Notes under the pieces: generated by a model
What the model saw: only the letters and a program-made list of their open reading frames with translations
Database searches by the model: none
Told to the model about the DNA's origin: nothing
In this document: positions 6,853 through 62,453 of the stretch, piece by piece
Layout of the letters: every line of letters begins with the position of its first letter
How positions within the stretch are numbered: position 1 is the first letter of the stretch
Assembly: GCA_020137815.1 (NCBI GenBank)
Contig: CM035355.1
Coordinates: 124,001-188,000, forward strand
DNA: 64,000 bases
Direction: 5' to 3'
Origin: Hormiphora californensis
Lineage: Eukaryota; Animalia; Ctenophora
Made by a program: the position numbers and the translations under genes

Positions 6853-6911
6853 TACTAGCAAGTAGCAACAGATCTCTGATTTTACTTAAAACTTGTCTAG
6901 CAATTGTTTAC

Positions 6912-28197: not shown

Positions 28198-28294
<97 letters not shown>

Positions 28295-28325
28295 TGGTGT
28301 GTGTGTGTGTGGTGTGTGTGTGTGT

Positions 28326-28380
<55 letters not shown>

Positions 28381-30210: not shown

Positions 30211-30315
30211 CAAGATGGTCCCACCAAATTCGACTTCGTTCAGAATGATGCTCAAGCTGCCGTATTGCATTCTTAAGACACTTTATTTTTCCTCGATACA
30301 TGTCTTCTCATCTGC
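30211..30315 (-). pseudogene. Duplicate of exon 44196-44301 (1-nt deletion)
   Basis: Same splice sites; 105 vs 106 nt. Confidence 0.6.
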
Positions 30316-30374
30316 CTGTGGAGTGTTTAACGATCACTAGGATTATAGGCAAGTCAAATCGTGTTATGTAAATA

Positions 30375-30810
30375 TCCTTATTATAAAGTACAAATGCGTG
30401 GCGTGGTGAGGAGGAGGATGTAGTATCCCACGTGCAAATGGTGGGGGTTGCCAAGGAGGTGGCTTGGGAGGGGTATTGGAGGTTTTGGGGGGATACTGCA
30501 CGTGCATGTTGTTGATTGTTTCTTGCGTGTTCCTGTGGTGTTCCTGTGGTGGTTTTGGGATCTACTGCTGGGATCGCCATGATTGCCAAACCCTTTCTAC
30601 CTACGTACCCCGTTGATTCTCTACACAGCTATCTATGGATCTTTATCACCTGTTTCTACATGTTATTCAGGGATTTCCCTTGATATTTATCATCAGCGCT
30701 CTACCATACGAACCTCCGTATTCTTTACCCCGACATGGAGAGACGAATAGTAAGAGCTAGAGGGGGGATAGAGACGGGGGGGTGTTGTAATACTACAATG
30801 GGCTTTCTAG
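30375..30810 (+). mobile_element. Non-autonomous Helitron (duplicate of 44361-44799)
   Basis: A|TC...hairpin...CTAG|T. Confidence 0.7.
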
Positions 30811-31404
30811 TTATTATATATTTTTCAATAGTCGCCCAAACAAACTATTACTCTCTAAAGGCAAGCCAATTCAGGTTGAATGTGAATTTATTTGTGAACA
30901 AGAATAATTGTCGTGATGCTAGCTTAAATAATGCGCCAGTGGCGAGAGGTGCCACTGGCACGCTCTCTATAAAAAGCCATCTGGGTCTGCTCTGATCAAA
31001 TCAAATCAACCCCAGGGAAACCTAGGGCAGAATTATTTCAAACCGTGTCAAACCGTGTCACACACACATTGTCATATCGACAGATCTCAATTTCTGGAAT
31101 TGCTGTTCTCTGTGGCACTGATTTTTCTTGTTTTTTCTCTCTCAATTTGATTCTCTCTTTTTCCTATCCCGAAATTCTCTCTCTTCTCTCTTTCAAATCA
31201 GACTCTTGCCGCGTCACTTTCGAGCCTGATGTGTCAAACGGAGCGGTCATCCTTTAATCACCAATCGGAGGTTTCGTTTCTGTGCGAGGTAACTGATTTC
31301 TCTCTCTTCCATCAGTGCGCTCCCGATACAAACCAAATCAAGGAGCCAGCCCTAAGACACAACCTCAAGCTAGGGACAAAGTGCAGCTCCCTAGTTGTGA
31401 GTAG

Positions 31405-34400: not shown

Positions 34401-35849
34401 AAATAACTCCTCCAGTTTGTTAATGAGAGAGCGGACATTTAGTGCTCCAATCTTCCAAGTCTTTTCCTGTGTAGTTCCTCCTTTGTCTCGTCCAGTACAG
34501 GTTTTTTTTCTTCTTGCTTACACCTGACGTCCTCTCCATAAGCCGTGCTCGTTCATTGATTGTACGAGGGACACCACATAGAAGCGTATGGGTCCTCGCA
34601 TACTTCTTGTCCTCTCTTGATCCTCCAACCGCACAGTTCACACACTTCATCTTACCAGTCTCATTGTTTTTCTTTGCCCTACAGTCCTTTGTCTGGTGTG
34701 TTCCAGCACAAAAGCAGCACACAGGGTTTTCCTTCTGAGGACAGTAGATCGAGCCTGCTATATGTCCGTATCCTTGACAGTGATAGCATTGAATCACATG
34801 ATACCGTTCTTGACAATGTTGTCGAAGACCTAGGTTGAGTTTATCACCGTTGTTAGACAAAAGCCTCCGGATCTCTGGAGCCATCTGGATCACTGCATAC
34901 CTGTCTCTCTCGCTCACAAACACTACTTTCAACTTCTTATCCTCATGATAAAGCTTTCTGATATCCTCATTTTTGTTCAAAATTGCTGCCAGGATAGTCT
35001 CCTTTTCCAGTAGTTCAGGGTTTCAAATCATTAATCGTCACTTTGGTTCAAGTTTCTTGGCCTCCTCTGAGAAGAATGACATGGAGCAGTCCTGTGCAAG
35101 AGGAGTCAACACTTTCTCCGCTTCCTTCATCTGGTCCTCATTAGGGAAATACAGTCGAGTATGGTCACTGTTCACTCTGGATCTCACCCACGGTACGTCT
35201 CAACGCAGTTTCCACTTTGGGTTTGACCTCATCAGTCCATTCTTCGCACAGAATCCTAACCCTCCTTCCTCATTGATGCCAGTTTTAATATTCACATAGT
35301 GTTTCATCGTAGGTGTAACCGGTTCTCTGGATCACCACCACCACCAATGTCACTTCTACCATTCTCCACAGGCTTGACCAAAGCAGAGATAGTCGAAACC
35401 AGATCTTTGTGCAGCTTTGCAAACGACTCCTTCAGGTCAGTTGGTCTCCAGGAACAGAAAACGGTGCCGACGCCGGAAGCATACTGTAGCAGGCTTTGAG
35501 AAGATGCCACAACTGAGGTTTATGGACAGACGACGGACAAACAGTTCACCCCTCTCAAGGCACACTAACAAATCAATACCCTTATAATCATTGCTAAATA
35601 CTTCTCCTGATAACACGTCTTCAAAATCACTCTTAGTGATACATATGTCATAATTACTCGTAACGGTCATCCTAAAACACCGTTGCACGCCGGCCAACAA
35701 AAAACTCTTCACTGATATCACTCGAAGTTAAGTTAAAGTAGGCCTAACAGAGATCTAAAAGATTAGAGAATAGATGCTAACACAGTTATCGGAACGATGA
35801 CGGCAAACTCAAATTAATTTGTTTAAAGTAGTGTTGAAAAGTTTGAAAC
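31405..35849 (-). mobile_element. L2/CR1-group LINE, frameshift-riddled twin of 45384-49882
   Basis: Fragmented ORFs with LDMSAAFDTVDH, GVPQGSLLGP, YADD and CCHC knuckles; (ATT)n tail; SL at 35808-35849. Confidence 0.9.
35808..35849 (-). other. Spliced-leader exon sequence at the LINE 5' end (twin copy)
   Basis: GTTTCAAACTTTTCAACACTACTTTAAACAAATTAATTTGAG, identical to 49841-49882. Confidence 0.75.
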
Positions 35850-36342
35850 AAAGACAACTTGTATATCACTACATTTTGATGCCAGCCCTGTTGACCCAAG
35901 CTTCCTGCCAGCTCTTTGACAGGCCCAGAACTAATGCATGTGTAGTTATACTGCCAAGGGGAGCCTACCAACACAACCCAGGATAAACTAGTCATACACT
36001 GAGATTGTAAAGTTTTACACATAAAATACATCTGAAACCAAATAATATTCCACCGCCTGACAACTGACAGGGTAACACGTTGAAATTTTGATCGTACAAT
36101 AGAAGAGAGATTGCATTTTCCAACTTTTATCTCCAAGTGGCTCATGTTTCTGAACCACCCTGTACTAGGGGTTGCTAAGTCGAATGAATCGCAATGAATC
36201 ATTTTACCTGTTATTCATTGGGTAATTATCTACTGATATCTGGAGTTTCAGCCCAAACGGTTGAGCCACTAAAAATCGCAAGCCACCCTGCTCTCGCATG
36301 GGGCCTCACGGCCCCATGTGGGAGTGGTGCGTGTAGTGGACC

Positions 36343-36373
<31 letters not shown>

Positions 36374-37305
36374 GGATAGAAAGAACAGGAATGAGTTACC
36401 CTCGAAAAATAAGAGATTGAGATACCGAGGGATAGAGATACCCGGCAGTAGCAAAAGGTGTAAGTGGGTCACCTTTCCCGCCAAGTAATTTCAATTAGTT
36501 TTTGGTGTCCCATATATTCTGTGGGTCGGTTGGCGAGCTGTCACGCAAAAACGGTGATAGTTGTGTGAAAACAAACTACGGGAGTGTGCTGGATTAATTC
36601 CTTCCTAACTGATGGCTTTGTTTTTAAATTAAATTTCAAAAGTGTCATTTTCATGAATGAACATTCTGTCATTCATTCGTGAATTCTGAAATATTGTTTA
36701 CCTTGAGTAAAAAACTTTTCTTGGCTCGAAATTATTTTTTCAGTGAGCACCATAAAAATCAAATTGAAGCACCGGATCCATGGCAGGTGAGAAAATGCAA
36801 ATGCATGATTTTGGCCATTCCTGCGACTTTCGATCAGCTGTATCACCGCTACTTTTCGTTCAATCCTTTTAAAAGTTTGGGTGAACATTGCTGAAGATAA
36901 GATGCTCACAAGAAAAATCAAGGTCAAAACTCAAAGTTAATTTTTTATTTTGGTAGTTCATTCCACTCTTCAGGAACAAACATCCCTAAAGTGACGAAAA
37001 GGTTTGGGTTTTGTTTGGCCCATGTCCTGAAACGACAGAGAGGTGTAAAAACGTGTTTCGGGCTAGTTAGTGGGTGTCCATGTGATCATTATGATATCTG
37101 ACACCTTTGCTGAGCCATAATTAAGAGATTTTCTCAAATTCAAACATGGGTACGGATATTCTGCGATTGGTATCGTGCACCAATAACAAGAGATCCATAG
37201 CACCTCAAAATAATGATTAGCAATAAATGAGTTGATTTACGATTGAAAATGTAAAGTCGGACTAAACGAACATTTTCAAGCGTGAATCAACTCATTTCAT
37301 TTAGC

Positions 37306-39315: not shown

Positions 39316-40161
39316 CAGTCGGACCCCAATTTAGTGGCCCCCGATTTAGTGGCACCCCGATTTAGTGGCACGATTTTTTTCCCCCAAAATTTTTTTTGTG
39401 AAATTTTTTGAAAATTTTTCAAAGGAATACCAGCCACGTCCAAATCGTGTTTCGAATCAGTGAATCTTATCGCATATCCTGCTGCTAATTAGACGGTTCG
39501 CAACGAACCGATACGTGATCCCCTGGGGGCCATTGAATCACAAGTTCACCAAGAGTCAAAATTTCGATTCGATGGGGATCACGTTCCGATTCGTTCCGAA
39601 CCATCTAATTAGCAGCAGGACATGCGATAAGATTCACCGATTCGAAACACGATTCGGACATGGTATACTTTTTAAAAAAATTTAAAACCTTTTTTGCAAA
39701 ATTTTACAGTACGATTGTCAATGCTTTGATCGGTGCTCCTCAAAAATTTTGAGAGAAAAAGTTATTTTGAAATTTTGATACTTCCTCACCCGCTTAGGGT
39801 GCCCCGATTCGGCATGGTATCACGTATCGGTTCGTTTCGAACCTGCTAATTAGACAGGACATCCAGTAAGCTGCACCGATTCGAAACACAAATCGGACGG
39901 GCTGGTATAATATAAGAAAATTTTCACAATTTTTTTTGAAAAAATTATTTTAAAGTTTTCTATTTCTAATCAGAAATTATCATGTCATCAATACATGAAC
40001 ATTGTATATAACAGTTAGAGGTGTTTTTAGTCGTGGTATAGCATTTTGGGCATAAAATAGGTTTTTATGGGCCAAATATGGATCTCCCCGATTTAGTGGC
40101 ACCCCGATTTAGTGGCAGGATTTTTTTCCCCCGAGGATGCCACTAAATCGGGGTCCGACTG
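39316..40161. mobile_element. Pogo/Tigger-like MITE, TA TSD
   Basis: ta|cagtcggacccc ... ggggtccgactg|ta; empty TA site at 26032-26033. Confidence 0.9.
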
Positions 40162-40566
40162 TAATAACAAAAATTTTAATAAAAAAAATTAAGTAATTTT
40201 TGAGGATTAATGATGATTTTTAAGGATTAATGAGGGCCCTCATTAATTCAAAAAGTGCTGGACAAGATATCATCCTCATTAATTATTGCCCCCCCCCCCC
40301 CATCGCACTTCATCACTCAATATTCAAGTATTTATTAGGAAGTAATTTTGATATCTCGTCTCCTTCTGCCGGGACTGTCTGGCGGCGCTGACCCGATCTA
40401 AGCACACTGACGCACGCTTAGAGAATCAAAACGGGTCGTTGGGGTCTGGCGGCGCCTGGGGTTGAGAGGATTCAACAGGCAGTGAGAGGACTCAAAAGGG
40501 GGTGTGAAAGTCAATAGCGGCGAAAGGAGTCAAGCGCAATAGGGATTGGTTCTAACTACTACTTAC

Positions 40567-40953
40567 CGCAAACTTTGGACCTTTTACATTGTAGCTCGGT
40601 GATGTCAGAAATTGTGCTGTAATCGTTGATCAACATTGACATTAAATCCATCGATTCTATGGATATCGTATCCTGTTCGGAGTCAGTCTCAGTACTATCA
40701 ATATCATAACAACGCCATGATTCTGGATCCGCACATTTCATGTTATTTTGATTAGCAACAAGTGACGTTGATGTCACTGATTCCACAGACTCGTATAAAG
40801 CAGAATTTTTTTCCTTGTCCAAGTAGCAACTGTTTGTAGCAATCTCAACTGATTTCTCATGAGAGGTAGAAGGTGCCCGTAAACGTATAGAGAAGGAAAA
40901 TACAACCTCGTCATCAACAAGCTGCAGATGTTCCTCAACGGCCTCCCATTCGC
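40567..40953 (-). CDS. Internal exon (387 nt, phase 1-1), acidic Ser-rich
   Basis: atttacattttag| acceptor, G|gtaagt donor, open reading frame throughout. Confidence 0.75.
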
Positions 40954-41338
40954 CTAAAATGTAAATATTTATAGATTAGTTTAGAGCAAAAACTAATTGA
41001 AGTTAGTTCAATGGAAAGGTAGCCCATTTTGTTTTTACTCCTTCATTTCCGTCACCTTGAGTTGAAGGTGGAAAAGTATACGGATACCTCAATGTCTATT
41101 GGTTGTGTGGGTGAACATTGTACTATAAGCAAAGATCTCTGCTCACAAGAAAAGTCAAGGTCAAAACTGTTTTTCTTTTTTGGTGGTTCATTCCACTCGA
41201 TTCATGAACCAAAATCCCAAAAGTGATGAAAAGGTTTGGCTTTTCTGGCCCACGCCCTGCAATGACAGAGAGTTGTTGTAGCGTGTTTCCGGGCTAATTT
41301 GTGTAAATGGGATCAACCTGCATCCTCAATATCCTTAA

Positions 41339-41807
41339 AGTGAGAGTGGACCGAATCAGAATTGGACAAGTTTGGTGTAGGTGGTAGAGATTAGCTTTCT
41401 GAGCATTTTGCGTTTTTGCCGCTCAAAATCGACCCACCCATCACTGAGATATCTTTGTTATGTTGGGAGAATTTCTGCTGGATCAATATTTATGAAACAG
41501 GATAGAAATAATCCTTGTGTTTTACTAACACATTCTTTAAATTTTCAATATGCTAACTTGCATTGTTCTGCATCTGTGCATGAACATGTCAACCTCACTG
41601 CTTATATTCAGAATGTGTTAGGAAAACATGACGATTGTTTCTATTCTGTTTTTTACATACTGATTAAACAGGAGTTCTCCCAACATAACAAAAATATCTC
41701 AGTGATGGGTGGGTCGATTTTAAGCGGCAAAACCGCGTTATGCTCAGAGAGCTAATCTGTACTACCTACAACAAACTTGTCCAATTCTGATTCGGTCCAC
41801 TCTCACT
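41339..41807. mobile_element. Kolobok-like MITE, TTAA TSD
   Basis: Same family as 4055-4523, opposite orientation. Confidence 0.8.
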
Positions 41808-42343
41808 TTAAATCGATAGTGTTTACGCAGTGTTTACGCAGTGTTTACGCAGTGAATACAGAAAGAATATGCAGTGAATACGCCGTGGTTCCAGAGTGAA
41901 TACGCAGCGAATACGCAATTATTGTGGATATCCTACCAGAACTGGTTACGCAGTGTTTAAAGGGCCTAAAAACCCAAACTTTTATTTAATTATTTTGAAC
42001 ACTACAGCGTAACAAGCATGTTATTGGAGTCCCAAAAAACATAGGTACACGCCCCACCCGCCCAATGTGAGGCCAGGGGGAGCCCCTTAAGTTGGGGCCA
42101 GTCGGGGTTCCCTTGTAAACGCGCTTGTACTCCTTGAAATGCTAACAATATGATCCTCACTGAAATTTGAAGTTTTGGGTGCAGTTGATCCGAAGATCAC
42201 GAATTCAATTAATATGTCGTGATTACTGTTTAATAGCTCAACTGGTCATTCCGAAAAATCAGATACAAACCGCACTGTATATGAGTTGGATCGCTTGGTT
42301 ACTTCCTTCGTTAAACAAGCACACATTACAGTGTGAGAGAATA

Positions 42344-42375
<32 letters not shown>

Positions 42376-43115
42376 TTCAACAAGGACACCGACCCAACCT
42401 CCTGTAAAGCTGGAAACATCGATCTACAAGCAGCCATCGCATCAAAATTAAAAAACAGATAACTCGTCACGTTGTTGTCAGTCTGCTGATACCATTCCTG
42501 ACTACCCTCCTGTTAAAGGTTACTCCAGTCTTCGTAACAACTCGCTCGTCGCTCTGCTAAAGGAAGGCATATAGCAAAGCTCACTTCACAACCACTTCAC
42601 GCGGATACATTAGTTGAGTGCGTGGTATATTTTCTTGTGTTATGTATACCGAAACTAATTTGTAAATCTTGTAAATCTAATCATTGTCATGTTTGTCTCT
42701 CTAGGTTTCGTCATGTATGCTGTCCCTCAGTGCGGTAATAAGTTTTGTGTCATGTTGCATTGTATTACCTCATTACCTCATTACCTGAGCATTGTATTAC
42801 CTCATCTATCACCATTCAACGAACTCGAACCGCCGCTGCAGTGACCCACCGAGCCAACTTCTCCTCCCAGCTCCTCCAACAATCCTCGTCTTCATGAGAT
42901 CGGAGTTCAACCACCACGAAGAACCAGAGGACGTCCGAGGACCAGAGCAACCCCTGAGGACCTTCTTCCTTCAGATTTTGGTCAGACAGTGAAACCGAAC
43001 AGCAGAGATATGGGGATTCAAGCCATCAGATGCAATATCTGCAAACAGCCGGGACATGTCGATAGAATCTGTCCCACCCATTCCACTGCATCCTCGACTA
43101 CTCATCCAGCTCTTA

Positions 43116-43371
43116 AAGTCGGATTTCTTCAAGTTATCACCCCCCTTTTCGCGCGCGGTGTCGTATTTGCGCGTGACAGCCCCCACTTTCTCTCACTTCT
43201 CGGCAAAAAGCCGCATATTCATCGGAAAGAAAATAATTTTGTGAGTCCGTAAAGTTTTTGTTTGACGAAATTGGTCAAGAAATGAAGGCGTGAGAGTCAA
43301 AATAAGTTTCCAGCACGCAAATAAAATGTCGCGTGCCACCCAGGGCGGTGACAACTTCAAAAATCCGACTT
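43116..43371. mobile_element. MITE interrupting the zinc-knuckle ORF
   Basis: ta|aagtcggattt ... aaatccgactt|ta; removal restores the reading frame. Confidence 0.8.
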
Positions 43372-43907
43372 TACTTCTTTCCCTGCAGTTGTGTCTAAAT
43401 TTGTCCAGACTTCTCCATCTTTTTCTACTAGACGCCCTGATTTGGGAGATGACTTCATTGAAATGCTAATGAACGGTGTCTCTCTTTCTGATGCATTACG
43501 CTGGTATGGACTGAAGCGAGAGGAGCTGTCATGATTGCGTATTCACTGCGTATTTGCTGCATATTCACTCTGGAACCGCGGCGTATTCACTGCGTATTAC
43601 TTGCGTATTCGCTCTGTATTCACTGCGTATTCGGTCTGTGTTATATACTACATAAACGCTGCGTAAACACTGCGTAAACACTATCGGAGGATGCGGGTAG
43701 AACCAAAGACTGAGTATTGGCAGCCAAAGTTGTGCCAATTTTCCTCAAAAATCCCAAACGTAATTGAGAAAATCTTCCCAAAATCTCAAAAATCTTATCG
43801 GCCAAAAATAGCGTAGCTGAGATTTTTGCGGCAGCCCCCCCCCCCCCTCCTCGTATTATCTTTTCAAAGTACTGTTCTTAAAAATTGATCTCCAAAATTG
43901 TTGTTTT

Positions 43908-44102
43908 TCAGGACAAAATTGGGTAGTACATATGAAATATTAGGTCGTGCGCGCCAAATGGCGCCAAATGGCGCCAGAAATGGCGCTATTTGGCGATAGT
44001 GCGCACTCGCTACATTTTGGCGCCAAATGGCGCCATTTATTCGCCACGTGGCGCCATTTGGCGTGCACGACCTAATTTTTCATACTACCCAAAATTGTCC
44101 TG
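43908..44102. mobile_element. Short palindromic MITE with ggcgccaaat subrepeats (copy at ~29927-30120)
   Basis: caggacaaaattgggtagta ... tactacccaaaattgtcctg. Confidence 0.7.
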
Positions 44103-44195
44103 TTTTTCTTCTATAGCTATTCTATGCCCATTGCCCATGGGAATGTTACAAATCTTAATTGAGGTCCTTAACGTAATTTATTTTGCATTGCTTAC

Positions 44196-44301
44196 CAAGA
44201 TGGTCCCACCAAATTCGACTTCGTTCAGAATGATGCTCAAGCTGCCGTATTGCATTCTTAAGACACTTTATTTCTTCCTCGATACATGTCTTCTCATCTG
44301 C
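44196..44301 (-). CDS. Internal exon (106 nt, phase 0-1): ADEKTCIEEEIKCLKNAIRQLEHHSERSRIWWDHL
   Basis: ctccacag| acceptor, G|gtaagc donor; joins the next exon as ...WWDHLGEWEAVEEH. Confidence 0.75.
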
Positions 44302-44360
44302 CTGTGGAGTGTTTAACGATCACTAGGATTATAGGCAAGTCAAATCGTGTTATGTAAATA

Positions 44361-44799
44361 TCCTTATTATAAAGTACAAATGCGTGGCGTGGTGAGGAGG
44401 AGGATGTAGTATCCCACGTGCAAATGGTGGGGGTTGCCAAGGAGGTGGCTTGGGAGGGGTATTGGAGGTTTTGGGGGGATACTGCACGTGCATGTTGTTG
44501 ATTGTTTCTTGCGTGTTCCTGTGGTGTTCCTGTGGTGTTTTGGGATCTACTGCTGGGATCGCCATGATTGCCAAACCCTTTCTACCTACGTACCCCGTTG
44601 ATTCTCTACACAGCTATCTATGGATCTTTATCACCTGTTTCTACATGTTATTCAGCGGGATTTCCCTTGATATTTATCATCAGCGCTCTACCACTACGAA
44701 CCTCCGTATTCTTTACCCCGACATGGAGAGACGAATAGTAAGAGCTAGAGGGGGGATAGAGACGGGGGGGGTGTTGTAATACTACAATGGGCTTTCTAG
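44361..44799 (+). mobile_element. Non-autonomous Helitron
   Basis: A|TCCTTATTAT ... ttgta-atac-tacaa hairpin ... CTAG|T, no TSD; inverted relative at 52822-53273. Confidence 0.75.
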
Positions 44800-45736
44800 T
44801 TATTATATATTTTTCAATAGTCGCCCAAACCTATTACTCTCTAAAGGCAAGCCAATTCAGGTTGAATGTGATATTATTTGTGAACAAGAATAATTGTCGT
44901 GATGCTAGCTTAAATAATGCGCCAGTGGCGAGAGGTGCCACTGGCACGCTCTCTATAAAAAGCCATCTGGGTCTGCTCTGATCAAATCAAATCAACCCCA
45001 GGGAAACCTAGGGCAGAATTATTTCAAACCGTGTCAAACCGTGTCACACACACATTGTCATATCGACAGATCTCAATTTCTGGAATTGCTGTTTCTCTGT
45101 GGCACTGATTTTTCTTGTTTCTCTCTCCCAATTTGATTTCTCTCTTTTCCTATCCCGAAATTTCTCTCTCTTCTCTCTTTCAAATCAGACTCTTGCCGCG
45201 TCACTTTCGAGCCTGATGTGTCAAACGGAGCGGTCATCCTTTAATCACCAAATCGGAGGTTTCGTTTCTGTGCGAGGTAACTGATTCTCTCTCTCTTCCA
45301 TCAGTGCGCTCCCGATACAAACCAAATCAAGGAGCCAGCCCTAAGACACAACCTCAAGCTAGGGACAAAGTGCAGCTCCCTAGTTGTGAGTAGTAATAAT
45401 AATAATAATAATAATATTCCGCACTTATATACCGCCCATACCCGACGGAAACATGTCAAAATATTGGCGATGTTCCGACGAGTCATCAGAGCGGTATATC
45501 CTAGAGTATAAATATCGCACACGAACAACTCTGGTTGAAAAAGACAATATATGGAAAACCAAATTAACTGGACTTATCAAAACTGGGGGAATAACTGGTC
45601 CCATAAACCTGTAGATATAATTTTAAACACGCTATACTCACACCTGCTCAAAAAAGGATACCAGATAGTGATTTAATAACATGACTAGAGAGAGGATGAC
45701 ACTGATTGCCCGCAGGCCCCACAACTACAACAAACA

Positions 45737-46360
45737 TTACAACTCAGCCATGGGTTCCCCATCACCCACTCCAAATGCACCAACGAAGAGATGTGTTTTC
45801 AGGCGAGCTTTAAAGGTATCAACGTTGGGGATCGTCCTTAACTCGAGGGGTAGCTCATTCCAAATAGTAGGCAGAAATACCGATAGTCTCCTACGTCTCA
45901 ATTTAGAATTGGCATTGATACTGGTCATCTTGGGGTGTTTTAATCTGTAAGGATCAATAACATTAGTCATCCTTGTTGTCCTGGAGACTCCCCAGCTTTC
46001 ATCAAGAGGTACCATTTCCTGGAGGTAACCTGGTGCTGTTCCATAGACTATCTTATAAGCGATTAGACAGGCTTTGAAGTCCAGTCTGTAGGAGATGGGT
46101 ACAATATGACACTGCCTGAAGTATTCCAAGTAATCCTCTTGATGCCCATGGATGTTGAATATAAAGCGTACACAGGAGTTTAGTGTTTTCTGGAGCCCAC
46201 CAAGAACTCGGGCCGGAAGTCCACAGTACAGAATATTACTGTAATCAATCCTCGATATAATCAATTGTTTGACCAGCATTATCTTCGTTTGAATATCAAA
46301 ACATCTGTGTAACTGCCAGAGATTCCGTAGTATCAGCCCACACTGTTTCCTCACATTATT
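45737..46360 (-). pseudogene. C-terminal part of LINE ORF2, out of frame after the deletion
   Basis: L2-type motifs SRIDYSN..GLP, FKACLIAYK, APGYL, WNELP..FKARLKTHLF. Confidence 0.85.
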
Positions 46361-49300
46361 CTCTTCACCTTCGCCAGACACTCCTCAATATCAACCTTTG
46401 TCCTAGACCAGCCAGTAGAATCCGTAGGAACCAGACTCACATAGAGCTGGGAGTCGTCTGCATATAACTTTATCCGGAGTCCATATGGTTCCACAATATC
46501 TTGCACAGCTTCAATGTAAAGTAGAAACAAAATTGGACCAAGAAGGGACCCCTGGGGCACTCCACAGAGTAAGGCTAGGGTATCCGAGAAACAATCACCA
46601 ACTGAGACTCTAAAAGATCTGGAACTCAAGTAGCTCTTAAACCATTGAAGAGGATCACCATCCACTCCAAACCGTTTCTGCAACACCTCCAACAACTTTT
46701 CATGATCCACCGTATCAAATGCGGCACTCATGTCCAAACAGATCAGAGCCACGACATTTTCTTTATCCATCTCACCTAATACATCGTCAAACATGCTGGC
46801 TAACAGAGTTTCGCAACTGTGACCAGCACGATAACCGGATTGATGCTTGCCCAGAAGTGAATTGCTTTCAAGGTACTCATTCAGCTGCATGAGCACCACC
46901 TTTTCTAGGAGCTTAGAAAGGAATGGGATATTTGAGACAGGACGATAGTTACTGAGAGCTTCCCTATCTCCGTACATATTCTTGATGGTAGGAAACACGA
47001 TAGCCTTCTGGAGAGATTCCGCAACTGTAGACTGATGTAGAGATTGGTTTACCATCGATGTTAATACCGGAGCAAGATCCCTAATGCACTCCTTTACTAC
47101 CCAAGTGGGCAACGGATCAAGGTCACAATGTTTGCTTGACATAGACTTCACCACCTTAACAAGTTCCTCCTCCGATATCTCTTTGAATTCCTTCCACGTT
47201 GAATGACAGGCTTTTCCGGGTTCCTCAAAGTCGCCAGCTTGCTTCTGCTCCTCATTGACTTGGGTTCGAATTTTTTCCACTTTGGAACTAAAGAACTGGG
47301 AGAAATCATCTGCCAAGTTCTTGGTGTTTGTTGTTTCAGGAAGAATTGTTTCAGCTTTTCCAAGAAGTTTCTGGAGCTTACTTTGCAATTTCTTTGGGTC
47401 ACCTTTGGCAGCAACCAAGTCCTCTTTAATGAAAAGTGACCTCTTTTCCCTATCCATCTTTCCATACAGTTTCTTCAGGTCATTAAATCTCCGTTTCGCA
47501 TCCACAGTTCCGAGTTTCCGCCAACACCGTTCTGCATTCCTCCTCTCTCGAAGTAATCCTCTAAGTTCCTCATCCCTCCATGGCTTAAACTTTTTCCCAA
47601 TCCTCACCCGCTTCCTCGGTACTCGCCTCTCCACTATACCTTCCAGCCAACGATAGAAATTCACCACGCCCTCCTCTGGATCCCTACCTCCTTCAAAATC
47701 AGCCTTCCGCAAATCCTCCCTAAATCCTTCCAAATCCACTGACTTGTAATCCATGTACTCTCGATATACTGACTTCTTCAGACAGGAGTTCGACAGGTCA
47801 GGTCTCACTTCAATCCCAAACTGTACTAGGAAGTGATCTGATGTAGTACCATTAGGAAATATGGATATGTCACCTAGAGAAGTTTCTCTTGTAGTTATCA
47901 CCAAGTCCAAGGTTCCTCCAAGCCGGTGAGTAGGTAACAGTGGCACTCTTTGTTGAAGATCAAATGAATCCAGCAGCTCCAAAAGTTTCCTCGCATAGAA
48001 GTTATTAGCATCCTGCACCTGGAAGTTCAAGTCACCAGCGATGATCGGAGTACCTTGCTTCATAACAAGCTCGGATAGGTAATCACCAAACTCCGATAGG
48101 AAGGTTGCTTCTGTAAGTCTTGACTTCGGTGTGTACGGAGGTCGGTAGACATTACAGATTCTCTTCGGTTGATCTCTGTCACTGATCAGGACCTCTTGAA
48201 CTTGAAAAGACTTATACTTAGTCTTCACCGGACACTGTCGAAGAACTATGCCATCTCTAAAAAGGATTCCAATTCCTCCACCTCCTCTGTCTCCTCTGGG
48301 GCACGAGAAAATATCCCATCCATTATCTCTGATTTCTTGAAGTTTTCCGGTGTCTGTTGATTTCAAAAATGTTTCCTGTATAAGACAAATATCACAATCC
48401 TCCTCTTCCAGATGCGAAATAACTCCTCCAGTTTTGTTAATGAGAGAGCGGACATTTAGTGTCCCAATCTTCCAAGTCTTTTCCTGTGTAGTTCCTCCTT
48501 TGTCCTCGTCCAGTACAGGTTTTTTTTCTTCTTTGCTTACACCTGACGTCCTCTCCATAAGCCGTGCTCGTTCATTGATGTACGAGGGACACCACATACT
48601 AGAAGCTGTATGGGTCCTCGCATACTTCTTGTCCTCTCTTGATCCTCCAACCGCACAGTTCACACACTTCATCTTACCAGTCTCATTGTTCTTCTTTGCC
48701 CTACAGTCCTTTGTCTGGTGTGTTCCAGCACAAAAGCAGCACACAGGGTTTTCCTTCTGAGGACAGTAGATCGAGCCTGCTATATGTCCGTATCCTTGAC
48801 AGTGATAGCATTGAATCACATGATACCTGTTCTTGACAAAATGTTGTCGAAGACCTAGGTTGAGTTTATCACCGTTGTTAGACAAAAGCCTCCGGATCTC
48901 TGGAGCCATCTGGATCACTGCATACCTGTCTCTCTCGCTCACAAACACTACTTTCAACTTCTTATCCTCATGATAAAGCTTTCTGATATCCTCATTTTTG
49001 TTCAAAATTGCTGCCAGGATAGTCTCCTTTTCCAGTAGTTCAGGGTTCAAATCATTAATCGTCACCTTTGGTTCAAGTTTCTTGGCCTCCTCTGAGAAGA
49101 ATGACATGGAGCAGTCCTGTGCAAGAGGAGTCAACACTTTCTCCGCTTCCTTCATCTGGTCCTCATTAGGGAAATACAGTCGAGTATGGTCACTGTTCAC
49201 TCTGGATCTCACCACCGGTATCGTCTTCAACGCAGTTTCCACTTTGGGTTTGACCTCATCAGTCCACTTCTTCGCACAGAATCCTAACCCTCCTTCCTCA

Positions 49301-49701
49301 TTGATGCCAGTTTTAATATTCACATAGTGTTTCATCGTAGGTGTAACCGGTTCCTCTGGATCACCACCACCACCAATGTCACTTCTACCATTCTCCACAG
49401 GCTTGACCAAAGCAGAGATAGTCGAAACCAGATCTTTGTGCAGCTTTGCAAACGACTCCTTCAGGTCAGTTTGGTCTCCAGGAACAGAAAACGGTGCCGA
49501 CGCCGGAAGCATACTGTAGCAGGCTTTGAGAAGATGCCACAACTGAGGTTTATGGACAGACGACGGACAAACAGTGTCACCCCTCTCAAGGCACACTAAC
49601 AAATCACTACCCTTATAATCATTGCTAAATACTTCTCCTGATAACACGTCTTCAAAATCACTCTTAGTGATACATATGTCATAATTACTCGTAACGGTCA
49701 T
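46351..49701 (-). CDS. LINE polyprotein: gag-like ORF1 (three Cys/His knuckles) + APE endonuclease + reverse transcriptase (truncated after YADD)
   Basis: CYHCQGYGH, CCFCAGTH, CVNC..H..C; NVRS, QET, YRPP, GDLN, SDH; NYRPVS, QSGYR, LDMSAAFD, GVPQGS, YADD. Confidence 0.92.
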   Translation of the reverse strand: MTVTSNYDICITKSDFEDVLSGEVFSNDYKGSDLLVCLERGDTVCPSSVHKPQLWHLLKACYSMLPASAPFSVPGDQTDLKESFAKLHKDLVSTISALVKPVENGRSDIGGGGDPEEPVTPTMKHYVNIKTGINEEGGLGFCAKKWTDEVKPKVETALKTIPVVRSRVNSDHTRLYFPNEDQMKEAEKVLTPLAQDCSMSFFSEEAKKLEPKVTINDLNPELLEKETILAAILNKNEDIRKLYHEDKKLKVVFVSERDRYAVIQMAPEIRRLLSNNGDKLNLGLRQHFVKNRYHVIQCYHCQGYGHIAGSIYCPQKENPVCCFCAGTHQTKDCRAKKNNETGKMKCVNCAVGGSREDKKYARTHTASSMWCPSYINERARLMERTSGVSKEEKKPVLDEDKGGTTQEKTWKIGTLNVRSLINKTGGVISHLEEEDCDICLIQETFLKSTDTGKLQEIRDNGWDIFSCPRGDRGGGGIGILFRDGIVLRQCPVKTKYKSFQVQEVLISDRDQPKRICNVYRPPYTPKSRLTEATFLSEFGDYLSELVMKQGTPIIAGDLNFQVQDANNFYARKLLELLDSFDLQQRVPLLPTHRLGGTLDLVITTRETSLGDISIFPNGTTSDHFLVQFGIEVRPDLSNSCLKKSVYREYMDYKSVDLEGFREDLRKADFEGGRDPEEGVVNFYRWLEGIVERRVPRKRVRIGKKFKPWRDEELRGLLRERRNAERCWRKLGTVDAKRRFNDLKKLYGKMDREKRSLFIKEDLVAAKGDPKKLQSKLQKLLGKAETILPETTNTKNLADDFSQFFSSKVEKIRTQVNEEQKQAGDFEEPGKACHSTWKEFKEISEEELVKVVKSMSSKHCDLDPLPTWVVKECIRDLAPVLTSMVNQSLHQSTVAESLQKAIVFPTIKNMYGDREALSNYRPVSNIPFLSKLLEKVVLMQLNEYLESNSLLGKHQSGYRAGHSCETLLASMFDDVLGEMDKENVVALICLDMSAAFDTVDHEKLLEVLQKRFGVDGDPLQWFKSYLSSRSFRVSVGDCFSDTLALLCGVPQGSLLGPILFLLYIEAVQDIVEPYGLRIKLYADDSQLYVSLVPTDSTGWSRTKVDIEECLAKVKRIM

Positions 49702-49840
49702 CCTAAAACACCCGTTGCACGCCGGCCAACAAAAAACTCTTCACTGATATCACTCGAAGTTAAGTTAAAGTAGGCCTAACAGAGATCTAAAAGATTAGAG
49801 AATAGATGCTAACACAGTTATCGGAACGATTGACGGCAAA

Positions 49841-49882
49841 CTCAAATTAATTTGTTTAAAGTAGTGTTGAAAAGTTTGAAAC
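49841..49882 (-). other. Ctenophore-type spliced-leader exon forming the LINE 5' terminus
   Basis: 42 nt GTTTCAAACTTTTCAACACTACTTTAAACAAATTAATTTGAG matches the ctenophore SL as recalled; followed by TTTGCC, not a GT donor. Confidence 0.75.
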
Positions 49883-50381
49883 AAAGACAACTTGTATATC
49901 ACTACATTTTGATGCCAGCCCTGTTGACCCAAGCTTCCTGCCAGCTCTTTGACAGGCCCCAGAACTAATGCATGTGCTAGTTATACTGCCAAGGGGAGCC
50001 TACCAACACAACCCAGGATAACTAGTCATACACTGAGATTGTAAAGTTTTACACATAAAATACATCTGAAAACCAAATAATATTCCACCGCCTGACAACT
50101 GACAGGGTAACACGTTGAAATTTTGATCCGTACAATAGAGAGAGGATTGTATTTTTCCAACTTTTATCTCCAAGTGGCTCCATGTTTCTGAACCACCCTG
50201 TACTAGGGGTTGCTAAGTCGGAATGAATCGCTATGAATCATTTTACCTGTTATTCATTGGGTAATTATCTACTGATATCTGGAGTTTCAGCCCAAACGGT
50301 TGAGCCACTAAAAATCGCAAGCCACCCTGCTCTCGCATGGGGCCTCACGGCCCCATGTGGGAGTGGTGCGTGTAGTGGACC

Positions 50382-50382
<1 letters not shown>

Positions 50383-50468
<86 letters not shown>
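50383..50468 (+). repeat. (GA)n microsatellite
   Basis: Direct. Confidence 0.95.
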
Positions 50469-50471
<3 letters not shown>

Positions 50472-50605
50472 TAGAAAGAACAGGAATGAGTTACCCTCGA
50501 AAAATAAGAGATTGAGATACCGAGGGATAGAGATACCCGGCAGTAGCAAAAGGTGTAAGTGGGTCACCTTTCCCGCCAAGTAATTTCAATTAGTTTTTGG
50601 CTTAA

Positions 50606-55834: not shown

Positions 55835-58800
55835 GGTGCACCCTAGTGGCGGTGGCGGTTTTTCTGTCCACTAGAAAGGGCTCTGAGCCCCGGACAACAT
55901 TTGGCGAAGGGGTTCATCCCAGGGTCTACGATGTGAAGTCTAAAACCTCTCGTATTCCAAGTACCGTGGTGCGTGATGAAGAATCACATCCCTCACAAGG
56001 TGCCACTGTTAATCGCTTTTCTGTCCTGGGTGATACCAGACTAAACAGATAAACGAAACGGAACACCACGGTACTAAACCAGTAAAGGTTGAAAAACAAT
56101 CCGTTGCGGGAGCTAGCAAACTCCCGTACCGTATCGGCCTGCTTACTCCTGTCTCTCCTGGAACGTTATCATGGTTGATTCTGGTGAGAGTGGCCGATTT
56201 ATCTTTAGGGGTTGGATCAGTTCCTGCGGTTTCCGGTGATGGACCAGTGGCGCGGCATCATCGGTTATGGAGGGTGCTATTATTGCCTACCTGAGAGGGG
56301 GGACCCTCTCTGTACCCTCCTAGCCATCTGAAAAGCAATCTAATGAAGTTCACCTATAGCGCCAGGGTTAAAGCCCCTGATATTCTTGCGGAGGCCAATG
56401 GCGCCCTTGAAGTGGTAGGCTTAAAGCCTTCGGGAGGGCCTGCTACAGATGGCCGGAGGTCCGAGCCGGAACAGAAAAAAGAACCAAAAAACCCCTTAAA
56501 AACTATAAAAAAATCTAGGATTTTAGGGTGTGATAGTGAGACTACAGAAATACCAAAAACATTTGGGATTATTGGTTGTAGGAGGGAAACGGTCGTGGGT
56601 ACTTTGAATGTGAGGACTATACGGGATGATTGTCGGAGGGAGGTTATGGTGAGCAGGTTTCTGAGTAGTGGTGTGGGTGTTATGGGTGTGCAGGAGCACA
56701 GGATCTGTCATGGCGAGGACGTGCAAGTGGAGAGAGGGAGAGGATTCTGTTTTGTATCTTCGTCGGCGTGGAGGAGTGGTTCTGGTGCAGCGTGTGGCGG
56801 GGTTGGGATGTTTCTGACAGAGGAAGCGTACAGGGCAGTGAAACTGGTGAAACCCTACACTAAGAGGATCCTCCTGGTTAGTTTCTCTGGTAACCCTGCT
56901 CTTACCGTAGTTTGTGTGTACTCTCCTACAGAGGGGAGTGATGCTGAGGAGGCTTCGTTGTTTCATCAGGATCTGCGTGCGGCTATTCATGAGGTTCCAG
57001 CGCATGATGTTCTGTTAGTAGTGGGTGACGTGAATGCTCACCTATCTAGGACGTCACCTGAGGACTCCGGCTTCTATCTCCATCCTACCTCCAACAGGAA
57101 TGGGACCCTCTTGCGTGACACTATGGTTGAGTGTGACCTTGTCGCCGGAAATCATCTGTTCCAGAAGAAGGCATCTAAGCTTCATACTTTCACCAGTGAT
57201 GGTACCCTCTGCAAGAGTCAGATCGACTATATTCTGGTCAGGAGTAAGTGGCGGAACTCTCTGCGGAACCTTGAGGTGGTGGACTCCTTCGGGGATGTCG
57301 GCTCAGATCACCGTGCAGTACTGGGTTTCATACGGCTGAGTCTCCGGAAGACAAAACGACCCAAGGGCCAGATCAGATATGACTTCACTCAGCTGAAGGA
57401 GGATACTGATTTACAGGACGAGTACAGTGTAGAGGTGAACAATCGTTTTGATGTTCTGAAGCAGGATGTGGAACTGAATGACGGTTCTGGGAGGTACGGG
57501 GCATTCGTTACAGCTGTCACTGAGACTAACAGTCGTTTGCTCCCCCGCAAGAGGAAACGAACCCATGACACAGCGATGGATGACCCTAGAGTTCAGACAG
57601 ACCGCGAGGAGTTATTTGTGGCAAAAAGGGCTTTCTTTCATGACCCCACGGAGGAGAGTAGGTGTGTGGTCAGTGAGAAGAAGGAGGCTCTTAGTGCTAC
57701 ACATGCCCTGGTGACTGAGGAGATTGTTAGTAGGAAAATAAGGCGTGTGGAGGCGGCCACTGATGAGAGGAAAAGTAAGGAGGCTTGGGATCTTATTAGA
57801 GATGTTACCGGAGGTGGTCGTCCTGGTGGTCTTGTGGAGGGTGGCAGCGCGGAAGGAAGGTTAGAATCGTGGAGGAACCATTTCTCTGGGATACTGGGCG
57901 CCCCGCCTGATGTCCCTGATGAGGACCTGACAGTTCACACGGTTAGTGAGGAACTTCCCATTTCTACCGACCGGTTCACTGCAGAGGAGTTTGATACTGC
58001 TAGGAGGTCGATCAAAGAAGGCAAGGCGTCGGGTGATGATGGTGTTGCACCGGAGGTGTTGAAGAGAGGAGGAGTCAGTGAGATCATGCTGGACTTCTAC
58101 AACGATGCTCTGGAGAATGGTAGCTTCCCGGATCAGTGGAGGAATCTCCTTATAGTCCCTGTTCCTAAAAAGGGCGACCTCACCAAAACTGGGAACTACA
58201 GGGGGATCTCTCTTACTTCTGTGGCTCTAAAGACCCTTAATAAGATTATCCTTAACCGGTTACTGCCCCACGTTGAGCCACTTCTGAGGGACAACCAAAA
58301 CGGTTTCCGCCCTGGACGTTCAACAACGTCCCACATCCTGGCTCTGCGGCGGTTACTGGAAGGTGTAACTGAGCGTAAACTTACCTCAGTTATACTATTT
58401 GTTGATTTTAAACGGGCCTTCGATTCAATACACAGAGGAACCCTTATGCGTATCCTGAGAGCCTACGGGATCCCGGAGAAGCTAGTTAGTCTGATCGAGT
58501 GCTCCTACCGGGACACCATCGCCCGGGTCAAAACGGAGGATGGTCTTACTGAAGCCATTGCTATTCTGGCAGGCGTACTGCAGGGGGACACTCTGGCACC
58601 ATACCTCTTCATCATCGTCATCGATTACGTCATGAGGCAGGCTCTGGAGGGTAAGGACTTTGGCTTCACAATCACCAGGCGAAGGAGTCGTCGTCATCCC
58701 GAGGTGAAGATCTCTGACACCGACTATGCGGACGATCTGTCACTGCTAGCCGATACGATCGACGAGGCTCAGGAGTTTCTTCTGAGTCTGGAGAGTGCTG

Positions 58801-59494
58801 CTGCAGCGGTTGGTTTACATCTCAACGAGGGGAAGACCAAGTTTATGGCCACTGGATATGAGGAGCCCTCCCTCGTGACTGCGAGTGGTAGGCAACTGGA
58901 ATGGGTGGATGACTTCGTCTACCTGGGTGCTCATCTCCGGTCCACAGAGCACGATTTCAATGTAAGGAAGGCCAAGGCCTGGGCGGCTTGTCATCGCTTG
59001 AGGAGTGTATGGAAGACTGACATGAGGAGGAGTTGCAAGGTTAATCTGTTCAGAACAACAGTGGAAGCCATACTACTCTATGGAGCAGAGACCTGGACAC
59101 TTACAGCTAGTCTGGAAAAACGCCTGGATGGATGTCATAGTAACATGCTGAGAATGGCACTGGGTATCAATTGGTGGGACAAGGTGCGGAATGAGGACGT
59201 CTATCAGAATACTCCCAGGGCATCTGAAACTGTCCGAGCTCGCAGATTAAGGCTGGCTGGTCATATACAGCGCCATCCCGAGCTTACTGCTCACCAGCTT
59301 CTTTTCTGGGAGCCGGACAGAGGGAATCGTAGCAGGGGGAGGCCCCAGAAGACTTTCCTTAAGCAAATCAGGGACGATACTGGTCTTGCATCCGATAACG
59401 AGATAAAGGAGCTTATGCAAAACCGGGAGCTGTGGCGGACTGATATAGTTGCTCGGACATGGAAGCCGCCCTAAGTCAAGTAAGTCAGTAAGTC
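55835..59494 (+). mobile_element. Full-length RTE-clade LINE
   Basis: 6-bp TSD agtgac (55829-55834, 59495-59500); ~500 nt 5'UTR; tail taagtcaagtaagtcagtaagtc; empty site visible in the mirror arm ~60500. Confidence 0.92.
56343..59474 (+). CDS. RTE endonuclease-reverse transcriptase, 1043 aa, intact
   Basis: NVRT, QEHR, GDVNA, IDYIL, SDH; NYRGISL, QNGFR, DFKRAFD, GVLQGD, YADD, LNEGKT, YLG, LLYGAETW, RGRP. Confidence 0.95.
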   Translation: MKFTYSARVKAPDILAEANGALEVVGLKPSGGPATDGRRSEPEQKKEPKNPLKTIKKSRILGCDSETTEIPKTFGIIGCRRETVVGTLNVRTIRDDCRREVMVSRFLSSGVGVMGVQEHRICHGEDVQVERGRGFCFVSSSAWRSGSGAACGGVGMFLTEEAYRAVKLVKPYTKRILLVSFSGNPALTVVCVYSPTEGSDAEEASLFHQDLRAAIHEVPAHDVLLVVGDVNAHLSRTSPEDSGFYLHPTSNRNGTLLRDTMVECDLVAGNHLFQKKASKLHTFTSDGTLCKSQIDYILVRSKWRNSLRNLEVVDSFGDVGSDHRAVLGFIRLSLRKTKRPKGQIRYDFTQLKEDTDLQDEYSVEVNNRFDVLKQDVELNDGSGRYGAFVTAVTETNSRLLPRKRKRTHDTAMDDPRVQTDREELFVAKRAFFHDPTEESRCVVSEKKEALSATHALVTEEIVSRKIRRVEAATDERKSKEAWDLIRDVTGGGRPGGLVEGGSAEGRLESWRNHFSGILGAPPDVPDEDLTVHTVSEELPISTDRFTAEEFDTARRSIKEGKASGDDGVAPEVLKRGGVSEIMLDFYNDALENGSFPDQWRNLLIVPVPKKGDLTKTGNYRGISLTSVALKTLNKIILNRLLPHVEPLLRDNQNGFRPGRSTTSHILALRRLLEGVTERKLTSVILFVDFKRAFDSIHRGTLMRILRAYGIPEKLVSLIECSYRDTIARVKTEDGLTEAIAILAGVLQGDTLAPYLFIIVIDYVMRQALEGKDFGFTITRRRSRRHPEVKISDTDYADDLSLLADTIDEAQEFLLSLESAAAAVGLHLNEGKTKFMATGYEEPSLVTASGRQLEWVDDFVYLGAHLRSTEHDFNVRKAKAWAACHRLRSVWKTDMRRSCKVNLFRTTVEAILLYGAETWTLTASLEKRLDGCHSNMLRMALGINWWDKVRNEDVYQNTPRASETVRARRLRLAGHIQRHPELTAHQLLFWEPDRGNRSRGRPQKTFLKQIRDDTGLASDNEIKELMQNRELWRTDIVARTWKPP

Positions 59495-62453
59495 AGTGAC
59501 CGAAGATGCCATAACAGGACATGCCAAATATGCCATAGCAGGGTACGCGTGGCTTGCCAGCGCATATTGTATAAGACTTCATTTTATGCCTTTCTGGGGT
59601 CTTTCCATGTGACCTTTGTTGTTGATTTTGTTGTTATAGAGGCCCATAGATGTCAAAAGAGGTGCATAGGTGGCCATAGAGACCCTTAGAGGCATATGAA
59701 GGCCTCTGCAGGCCCATAGAGGCCCATATACGTACATAGTAGTCTACAGAGGTTCATAGAGTCCCCTGGAAGGGCCATACAGACCCATAGAGTTCTATAG
59801 CGGCGTTCAGAGATTCAGAGAGGTCTCTTAGAGGGGCATGCATTGCTGTAGAGGTCCATAGGGATCCATAAAAGGCCCATAGAGGTCCATGGAGGCCCAT
59901 AGAGGTCCATAGAGGCTATAAAGGACCTGAATGGGCCTCTATGGAGTCTCTATGGATCTAGATGGGCATCTTAGGCCCTCAATCGGTCTCTATGGTACTC
60001 TAGGGTGCCTAAACGGGACTGTATAAGTCCATAGTAATCTGTACTGGCCACAATAAGTCTTCATGACCCTATAAAGGCCTCATTGAACCTCTTGGAGCCG
60101 CGATGGAACTCTACAGGCTTCTGTGGACCCCCATGAACATCTACGAAGTCTCCAGAGAGGTCTCTTAGAGCTCTAAGAGACCTCTCTGGATCTCTGAACG
60201 CTGCTATAGAACTATATGGGTCTTTATGGTCCTTCAAGGGGACTCTATGAACCTCTGTAGACTGCTATGTACGTATATGGGCCTCTATGGGCCTGCAGAG
60301 GCCTTCATGGGCCTCTAAGGGTCTCTATGGCCACCTATGCACCTCTTTTGACATCTATGGGCCTCTATAACAACAAAATCAACAACAAAGGTCACATGGA
60401 AAGACCCCAGAAAGGCATAAAATGAAGTCTTATCCAATATGCGCTGGCAAGCCACGCGTTCCCTGCTATGGCATATTTGGCATGTCTTGTTATGGCATCT
60501 TCGGTCACTAGGGTGCATCTAAGGTGGAAGCAAGTCATTCAGAAGAGTCATCAAGCTATTTTGGAACTCATAACATCGTCCAAAGGGTGAAATACGTCAA
60601 AATGAAAGTTGTACTTCCCGCGCGATGGCTAATTACGTAATTAGCCATGTGATTAGCCTAAATGAGTTCCGATTTCAAAAAAAAATTGGGAAATTGCTTT
60701 TCTCACTAAACCTCACACCTAAAAAAAAGTTAGAGTTGCTACTTCAAAAATTTTTTCCCTGCCCGGGTGAATGCCGAATGTCAAAAGCTGGTTAGCAAGT
60801 GTCATGTGATTGGGAGTTAGCTAACTCTAAGCTATGTGAGAAGTATACTGACAGCTAGATCGTATGCATCTCACATTACATTATGACCAAGCCTTGATCC
60901 TGTTGGCAGTGACAATGTCACTGACATGTGAAACGGTAGGGCAGGGAAACACAGCATTATGAATACATAATGCAATAATTCTTGTTTAAAAATGGATAAT
61001 TTGGAGCACCCTACCCTAAAGTGATGGAAAAGTGTTGGATTTTGTTTGGCCAATGTCCTGCAATGACAGAGAGGTGTGGTAACGTGTTTCCGGGCTAGTT
61101 AGTGGGTGTCCATGTGATCTTGGTGATACGTCCTGACACCTTCACTGAGCAATAATCAAGGGATTTTCACGAATAGAATTCAAGCATGTGATTTGGGTTT
61201 TCTGCGATTGGTATCGTGCAGCAATGTTAAGAGATCTCATAGCCCCTCGAAAATGATGGTTAGTTCAATGAAATGAGTTGATTTATGATCGAAAATGGTC
61301 GTTGAGTTCAATGTGGCATCGGTTTTAATATTATTGATCATAAATCAACTCAATTTATTTTTGAGGTGCTATGTGATCTCTCAAGATTGCTGCACGATAC
61401 CAATCGCAGTAGACCCGAATCACATGCTTTAATTCGAGAAAATCCCTTGATTATTGCTCAGTGAAGGTGTCAGGTATCACCAAGATCACATGGACACCCA
61501 CTAACTAGCCCGGAAACACGTTACCACACCTCTCTGTCATTGCAGGACATTGGCCAAACAAAATCCAACACTTTTCCATCACTTTAGGGTTGTTGGTTAC
61601 TGAATGAGCGGAATGAACTACCAAAACTTAAAAATGAACTTTGAGTTTTAACCTTGATTTTTCTTGTGAGCAAAGATCTTTGCTTATCCAATGTTCACCC
61701 AAAGTTTCAAAAAGATTGAAGGTAAGGTAGCGGTGATACAGCCGATTGAAAGTCGCAAAAAGAGCCAAAATCATGCATGTTCATTTTCTCAACTGTCATG
61801 TGACCTGGTGCTTCAATTTGAGTTTTATGGTGCCCAATGGAAAGATAATTGCGAGCCAAAGAAAAGTTACTTACTCAAGGTAAACAATATTTCAGAATTC
61901 ATGAATGAACGGCCGCAATGTTCATTCATGAAAAATGAACTTTTGAAATTTAATTTTAAAACAAAGCCATCAGTTAGGAAGAAATTAATCCAGCACACTC
62001 CCGCAGTTTTTTTTCACACAACTATCACCGTTTTTACGTGACAGCTCGCCAACCGACCCGGAGAATATATGGGACACCCTGTATATATACACCAGAGGAT
62101 TCAGATTGACTGATGAAACTAGTTGTGTTTTATTAACCCCTCGTCTCCCTCCTTCACACATATATATATATCTGGAATCTGGAGCACCAACCTGACACTC
62201 TCTGTCCTTGGATGTCGCCAGGTTGATGCTCCAACATTCCTACGCACCGGGAAACTCGTGCGGAATTATCTTCGACCGTGTCAAAAACCGTGTCACACAT
62301 TATCATACCGAGCAATAGTTTAGTATATCCAGAGTATCTAACAATACTTCTTTCGTATGTAGTTCGTATCGCATCACCGACAACTGAAATTAACGCTTAA
62401 TATTAATAGGGCCAGATAGAGGTCGTGTTGACTACATTTTGGTGGGTGCTGAA

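Follow-up and report, generated by a model that had tools for sequence, protein, structure and literature searches.

The host spliced leader as first sequence of dispersed LINE copies in ctenophores

LINEs have to keep their 5' end and their promoter in each round of retrotransposition, and the solutions known are internal promoters and self-cleaving ribozymes. In the stretch of 64,000 nucleotides of Hormiphora californensis DNA analysed here (termed the window in the following), a LINE carries at its 5' end a 42-mer that resembles a spliced leader (SL) exon. The locus therefore raises the question of whether this sequence is the leader of the host, whether it belongs to the element, and how it got there.

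The leader copy in the window

The 42-mer was found on the minus strand at 49882-49841 and again at 35849-35808. Its 41-nt core has two exact matches in the window, with none expected from 100 shuffles, and a looser scan of the window revealed no SL copies beyond those two. The published Hormiphora leader comprises 44 nt, the last 42 of which are the window 42-mer; it is reported to be present on 56% of Iso-Seq reads and to have 718 genomic occurrences (PMC8527503, in the part drawn on here). Metagenome contigs were searched with the exact last 29 nt of the SL, a search to which copies with a mutated SL or without one are invisible. The resulting 34 loci comprise 23 mRNA-like loci, in which the SL lies at the contig end and is followed by an ordinary protein frame, one SL gene array and 10 element-like loci. 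Furthermore, run X22 of the species holding the window DNA, which is guessed, not known, to be RNA, gave 507 contigs that match the window, nearly all of them on the SL and with many different continuations. Outside the SL region this run shows a trace of depth in a single LINE bin (depth in 3 of 30 bins overall), which is uninformative on LINE expression. The original prediction, which had taken the 42-mer for the ctenophore SL exon, was thereby confirmed by leader identity, the mRNA-like loci and the X22 contigs.

A true SL RNA gene was available for comparison in contig L022 (1-1623), an array with a 778-bp unit in which the SL gene alternates with 5S rRNA. Its exon agrees with the window 42-mer in 42 of 42 nt and is followed by a GTAAGC donor, and the gene has a stable fold (z -3.87); the exon is probably 43 nt long with AG as its first bases. 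In the window, TTTGCC and not GT adjoins the 3' end of the 42-mer. The 42-nt exon is the only part shared by both sequences: the SL intron has no match in the window, and the upstream region of the SL gene and the 5S-linked array are absent from it, without an Rfam match there. The window copy, lacking the GT donor, the intron and the upstream region of the gene, is thus no SL RNA gene, as had been predicted, and its flanks do not rebuild one. In run X4, 27 DNA contigs continue past the SL at 49841 with mixed sequence (agreement 0.44); what adjoins many genomic SL copies is therefore not a single SL intron.

Both SL copies are located inside a 10.5-kb tandem duplication (26030-36505 and 40160-50600). 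The left copy shows 84 single-base deletions compared with 14 in the right one, a pattern that we ascribe to unpolished long reads. The two copies are one insertion, as had been claimed before, and owing to the excess of single-base deletions on the left it was likely duplicated by assembly error. Another tandem near-duplicate in the window (6853-11512 and 15742-20296, with 88 gap openings) also suggests long-read assembly duplication.

The window LINE and its SL-headed relatives

The element is a LINE of 4.5 kb with APE and RT that closes with an (ATT)7 tail, and a hairpin is predicted in its 3' UTR; its ORF1 ATG is at 49701, and the 42-mer ends 140 nt upstream of it. The features are compiled in Table 1. 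ORF2 contains an N-terminal EEP/APE domain and RVT_1 only and no RLE, so that the element is of the APE type, in accordance with the earlier assignment; an ORF2 with APE and RT, an upstream ORF1, a 3' simple-repeat tail and many dispersed copies are all present. It may be a member of L2, judging by C-terminal motifs of ORF2. ORF1 of the window copy has no Pfam match. A weak zf-CCHC_6 match (E 0.0013) was obtained for the relative L021, the other knuckle-like motifs being recognised by eye, and the ORF1 type fits L2, CR1 or Jockey, the groups in which type I ORF1s with RRM and CCHC are found (PMC4120745, in the part considered).

Table 1. Features of the SL-headed LINE in the window and heptamer positions in its relatives
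Feature	Position	Strand	Basis
5' flank, single-copy-like depth, unrelated to SL gene upstream region	49883..50119	.	
SL exon copy, 42 of probably 43 nt, 5' end of LINE	49841..49882	-	sequence match
LINE 5' UTR, 139 nt	49702..49840	-	
5' arm of predicted long-range UTR helix, from second base past SL junction	49832..49839	-	
3' arm of predicted long-range UTR helix	49715..49723	-	
Splice-acceptor-like TGTTTTAG, one base ahead of ORF1 ATG	49703..49710	-	sequence likeness
ORF1 region, three Cys/His knuckle-like motifs (by eye); family stop out of frame	48456..49701	-	
ORF1/ORF2 overlap region	48456-48530	-	
A-run at place homologous to conserved A_AAA_AAY; one extra A fuses ORF1 to ORF2	48520..48527	-	
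ORF2 region, APE endonuclease and RT, broken by 205-nt deletion at 46360/46361	45737..48519	-	
Predicted 3' UTR hairpin, present too in L008 and L015 (z -2.95, -4.15, -2.75)	45428..45497	-	
(ATT)7 tail, LINE 3' end	45395..45415	-	
Second SL copy, head of duplicated indel-rich LINE copy (about 31406-35849), same insertion	35808..35849	-	
Heptamer in relatives	L003 1520, L007 1397, L008 1431, L015 1463, L021 1559, L034 1437	coding	

The window copy is broken: the RT region of the right copy lacks 205 nt, and loose contig ends occur at 46361. A spliced-out intron was rejected as the cause of the gap, since the missing piece starts with GT but does not end with AG. The single frame of 1116 aa is particular to the right window copy, and one A fewer is present near 48520-48531 in the relative L007, in the left window copy and in part of the read contigs. 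As the relatives keep two overlapping ORFs, a family of single-ORF LINEs was ruled out. A target-site duplication was not found in the window copy and none was seen in the relative L032. A second LINE in the window (about 55835-59497, plus strand), which is presumably RTE-like by its features, has an APE and RT ORF of 1043 aa and is inserted in an inverted-repeat element; it is devoid of a 5' SL, so not every LINE of the window is SL-headed.

Contig depth differs strongly between the UTR and the flanks. At 49756 in the UTR it reached 22,959, 18,903 and 32,394 in three DNA runs, compared with 257, 391 and 209 in the 3' flank and 264 (X1) and 339 (X3) in the 5' flank; the small-share runs X7-X20 were left out of these figures. 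The UTR value is about 50-155 times the flank value, in terms of summed contig depth and not of copy number. The LINE family is abundant and its 5' flank is not. A contig of run X3 (49859-50119) joins the SL to the flank with zero differences, and a second sample thereby confirms the junction.

Six of the element-like loci are homologous to the window LINE in tblastn (L007, L003, L008, L034, L015 and L021), with ORF1s 37-86% identical to that of the window. The closest, L007, has 84% nucleotide identity and reads TTTGCCGTCAATCG directly after the SL, with the junction base as in the window and a different flank; the ORF1s of the remaining five are 37-45% identical to the window ORF1. L020 contains an APE domain and an ORF1 unrelated to that of the window, and L016, L031 and L032 encode proteins that look ORF1-like by their motifs, without a Pfam match. 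The SL heads lineages whose ORF1s are only 31-61% alike and whose flanks are unrelated. No retrocopy of a recognisable cellular gene was present among the 10 element-like loci, seven of which derived from one dataset.

Non-SL sequence of at least 17 nt precedes the SL in 7 of the 10 element-like loci, and 6 nt or fewer in L008, L015 and L031. Nine flanks are at least 12 nt long (those of the seven loci, of the SL gene and of the window), and no two of them resemble each other. Together with the single-copy flank depth, this shows that homology within the family does not extend upstream of the SL. In all 11 elements, the window included, the match to the SL gene reaches 35-43 nt back from the exon end, which corresponds to a 5' loss of 0-8 nt (mean 2.4) with one complete leader, and the surviving bases at the 5' end of the SL match the SL gene in all lineages. 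The base after the SL is T or G in 10 of 10 elements and in 9 of 23 mRNA-like loci (p 0.0014), a statistic to which we give no weight, the elements being related. A GT follows the SL in L015 (GTTCCG) and L021 (GTTTCG), which speaks against copying from trans-spliced RNA but differs from the GTAAGC donor of the gene. In L020 and L032 the SL is followed by TTTCAG, and L016 has TTTTAG and then GAT, compared with GAT directly after the SL in L031.

Viral contigs yielded no matches to the SL pattern, and SL-independent, protein-based searches of viral and prokaryotic contigs revealed no relatives. In a search for ORF1 homologues whose length limits were derived from the fused ORF, not one of 7379 candidates was scored. 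Three of the relatives showed further peculiarities. L032 (about 462-1620) is a short SL-headed element with one ORF1-like frame of 318 aa, an (AAT)n tail and no ORF2, and is likely a non-autonomous LINE; its nearest Atlas clusters are mostly from Ctenophora, and L016 is a relative at 27% identity. L020 bears 351 nt of flank upstream of the SL, and the other four SL loci of its dataset are mRNA-like; it could represent a read-through precursor before splicing, or carried-over DNA. In ORF2 of L008 an in-frame insert of about 100 residues (about 2732-3075, coding strand) is located ahead of the RT core and is absent from the window ORF.

The two ORFs of the relatives overlap, and in all six homologous relatives an in-frame A_AAA_AAY is located in the overlap at a constant place, compared with 0 of 26 other Lys-Asn pairs. 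In four of the six, the ORF2 frame has no Met before the APE core. Judged from these sequence features, a -1 ribosomal frameshift is the likely source of ORF2, and part of the pattern in the overlap could stem from dual coding. A_AAA_AAC is among the shiftiest heptamers (PMC5009743), and in the literature consulted, including the part of that source used here, no such frameshift case was given for LINEs of the L2/CR1 group. The local fold past the heptamer gave z values of -1.9 to +1.0 in a pseudoknot-free model, and no downstream stimulator was found among local folds and pairings with the 3' tail. A long-range duplex between the frameshift site and the 3' tail found no support, the best candidates ranking 8th of 597, 3rd of 705 and 30th of 664 windows in differing registers.

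A probable trans-splicing origin and its alternatives

In dispersed LINE copies of several lineages the SL is the first sequence of the element. The original prediction held that the LINE RNA was SL-trans-spliced and then reverse transcribed to its 5' end, and the SL-headed relatives with their unlike flanks support such an origin. We assign a probability of about three in four to the reading that the window LINE and its relatives throughout the clade were copied from SL-trans-spliced RNA, a reading in which the splicing step is deduced from DNA. The SL-headed habit extends over the six homologous relatives and is no single accident, which widens the claim beyond the window copy.

The proposed cycle would begin with a precursor that starts upstream of the element, either by read-through or by initiation driven by the conserved UTR. 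The host spliceosome would trans-splice this precursor, so that the template would owe both its 5' end and its cap to the leader. The trans-spliced RNA would then be translated, and reverse transcription would stop at most a few bases short of the cap. In a following round, re-splicing at the last AG of the old SL could exchange the flank and the old SL for a fresh capped one, and the 5' bases lost would be restored every time. Copies that descend from trans-spliced RNA would contain no original outron, and the last two bases of the old SL are therefore the sole AG at the junction. As an unrenewed leader would be expected to erode, the preservation of the leader across the lineages favours renewal. 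Compared with L016, L020 and L032, the junction of L031 looks, in this one case, as if it had moved in a later round to the YAG that follows. Against re-splicing it counts that GAG is the rarest 3' splice site, and that a better-looking acceptor lies beside the ORF1 ATG, yet the UTR is retained in the families seen. Renewal at the last AG of the old SL is the most economical step, and we give it roughly even odds.

The UTR itself appears to be constrained. Over its 139 nt, the window and L007 are 96% identical and over the first 62 nt 98%, compared with 53-66% at fourfold-degenerate sites. A predicted helix pairs bases +2 to +9 past the junction with a stretch just ahead of the ATG: 40 of 40 cells are paired and 4 of 8 pairs are changed on both sides, a covariation contributed by two lineages, whereas slid controls reached 33-58%. 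The junction hence coincides with the border of an RNA domain under constraint, in favour of its being the natural 5' boundary. Directly ahead of GATG, TGTTTTAG is invariant in five sequences (the window and four relatives); L015 has TGTTACAG at this acceptor-like site, and in L021 the site is not recognisable. A 5' ribozyme was considered and rejected, as no Rfam match was obtained for the window and six loci and the SL with the UTR folds no better than shuffles (z 0.87).

The conservation of the UTR could mark a promoter, and this leads to the main rival of the trans-splicing reading, which we regard as improbable: the SL may have been captured once per lineage and since then form the first 43 bases of the element, transcribed from +1 by an internal promoter in the SL or the conserved UTR, without new trans-splicing. 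The first 62 nt of the UTR show the conservation expected of an internal promoter, LINEs of this kind normally possess one (PMC2861651, in the part considered), an SL acting as promoter has been suggested in print for dinoflagellate retrogenes (PMC6050394, likewise in part), and drifted SL copies would be hidden by our exact-match search. However, independent capture and perfect retention would be needed in at least three groups without mutual ORF1 BLAST match, and retention would have to persist although each insertion loses 2.4 nt on average and a single leader in 11 is complete. Moreover, the UTRs adjoining the SL are widely diverged among the lineages.

A template jump, in which the RT finished the LINE RNA and then moved to SL RNA or an SL-bearing mRNA, is highly improbable. 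Chimeras of snRNAs and LINEs arise by such RT jumps, and one DNA contig of run X4 joins a 30-nt SL fragment (49853-49882) to the start of a full SL (joint 49882 to 49853), resulting in a partial tandem leader, so that jumps between SL templates may occur. The junction is, however, at the exact exon end in 11 of 11 elements, the window and L007 share the LINE base that adjoins it, and no SL intron or mRNA sequence is interposed.

CRE and SLACS are elements whose targets are SL genes. Insertion with SL RNA genes or scattered SL exons as specific target sites, in the manner of NeSL, CRE and SLACS, is hardly credible here, although non-LTR elements are known to target SL exons (PMC4640811, in part) and hundreds of SL copies exist in the Hormiphora genome (PMC8527503, in part), since no flank matches the upstream region or the intron of the SL gene, the endonuclease is APE and not RLE, and the 3' flanks seen (window, L008, L015 and L032) do not start with a donor, in keeping with the earlier statement that no SL intron follows the element.

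With trans-splicing as the preferred reading, a fuller scheme may be drawn, which as a whole we consider rather doubtful: unrelated ctenophore LINE lineages would live on a promoter-free, self-renewing cycle of host read-through and re-splicing at their own AG, with a helix shielding the acceptor at the ATG and a -1 slip for ORF2, and would account for much of the 718 SL copies.

Comparison with known systems

The 2010 Hydra genome paper is said to mention many SL-containing retrotransposon copies. Transcripts of Hydra CR1 carry trans-spliced leaders, and the SL is present on about 30% of the TE Iso-Seq reads (PMC12220107, in the part used here). There the RNA of a CR1-group LINE receives the SL of the host, as is proposed here for the ctenophore element. 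In that part of the source the leader is described on transcripts, whereas in the ctenophore LINE it is the fixed 5' end of genomic copies.

SL-bearing retroposition is known. For ctenophore LINEs with the host leader as 5' end, we found no description of such families or of such a clade in the open literature consulted, including parts of PMC2566580, PMC2861651, PMC7986045, PMC12460157 and PMC4233971. If the trans-splicing reading is true, host trans-splicing would be a third way to preserve the 5' end of a LINE, acting across an animal LINE clade. SL-headed LINEs would also be the origin of some of the hundreds of dispersed SL copies of Hormiphora, which are counted without assignment to retroelements in the sections of PMC8527503 considered. 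SL-gene finders and first-exon annotations in ctenophores may pick up LINE heads.

The retrogenes with SL relicts of dinoflagellates (PMC6050394, in part) resemble the proposed history of the ctenophore LINE in that the SL of a trans-spliced RNA ends up, through reverse transcription, as DNA at the 5' end of the copy. They differ in their cargo of cellular genes, in the possible tandem relics and in the suspected engine, an LTR element; in the ctenophore case, the autonomous LINE itself bears one near-complete SL with a fixed junction. NeSL, SLACS and CRE (PMC4640811, in part) are likewise LINEs adjoining SL exon sequence. These are RLE-type elements that insert into SL genes, whereas the window LINE is of the APE type and dispersed, with flanks devoid of SL promoter and intron. 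With the type I LINEs of the L2/CR1 group (PMC4120745, in part) the window family shares an ORF2 with APE and RT, an ORF1 with knuckle-like motifs, a short-repeat tail, a predicted 3' hairpin and the lack of a visible target-site duplication; it is set apart from them by the host SL as its 5' end and by an ORF2 that overlaps ORF1 in the -1 frame behind a conserved, putatively slippery heptamer.
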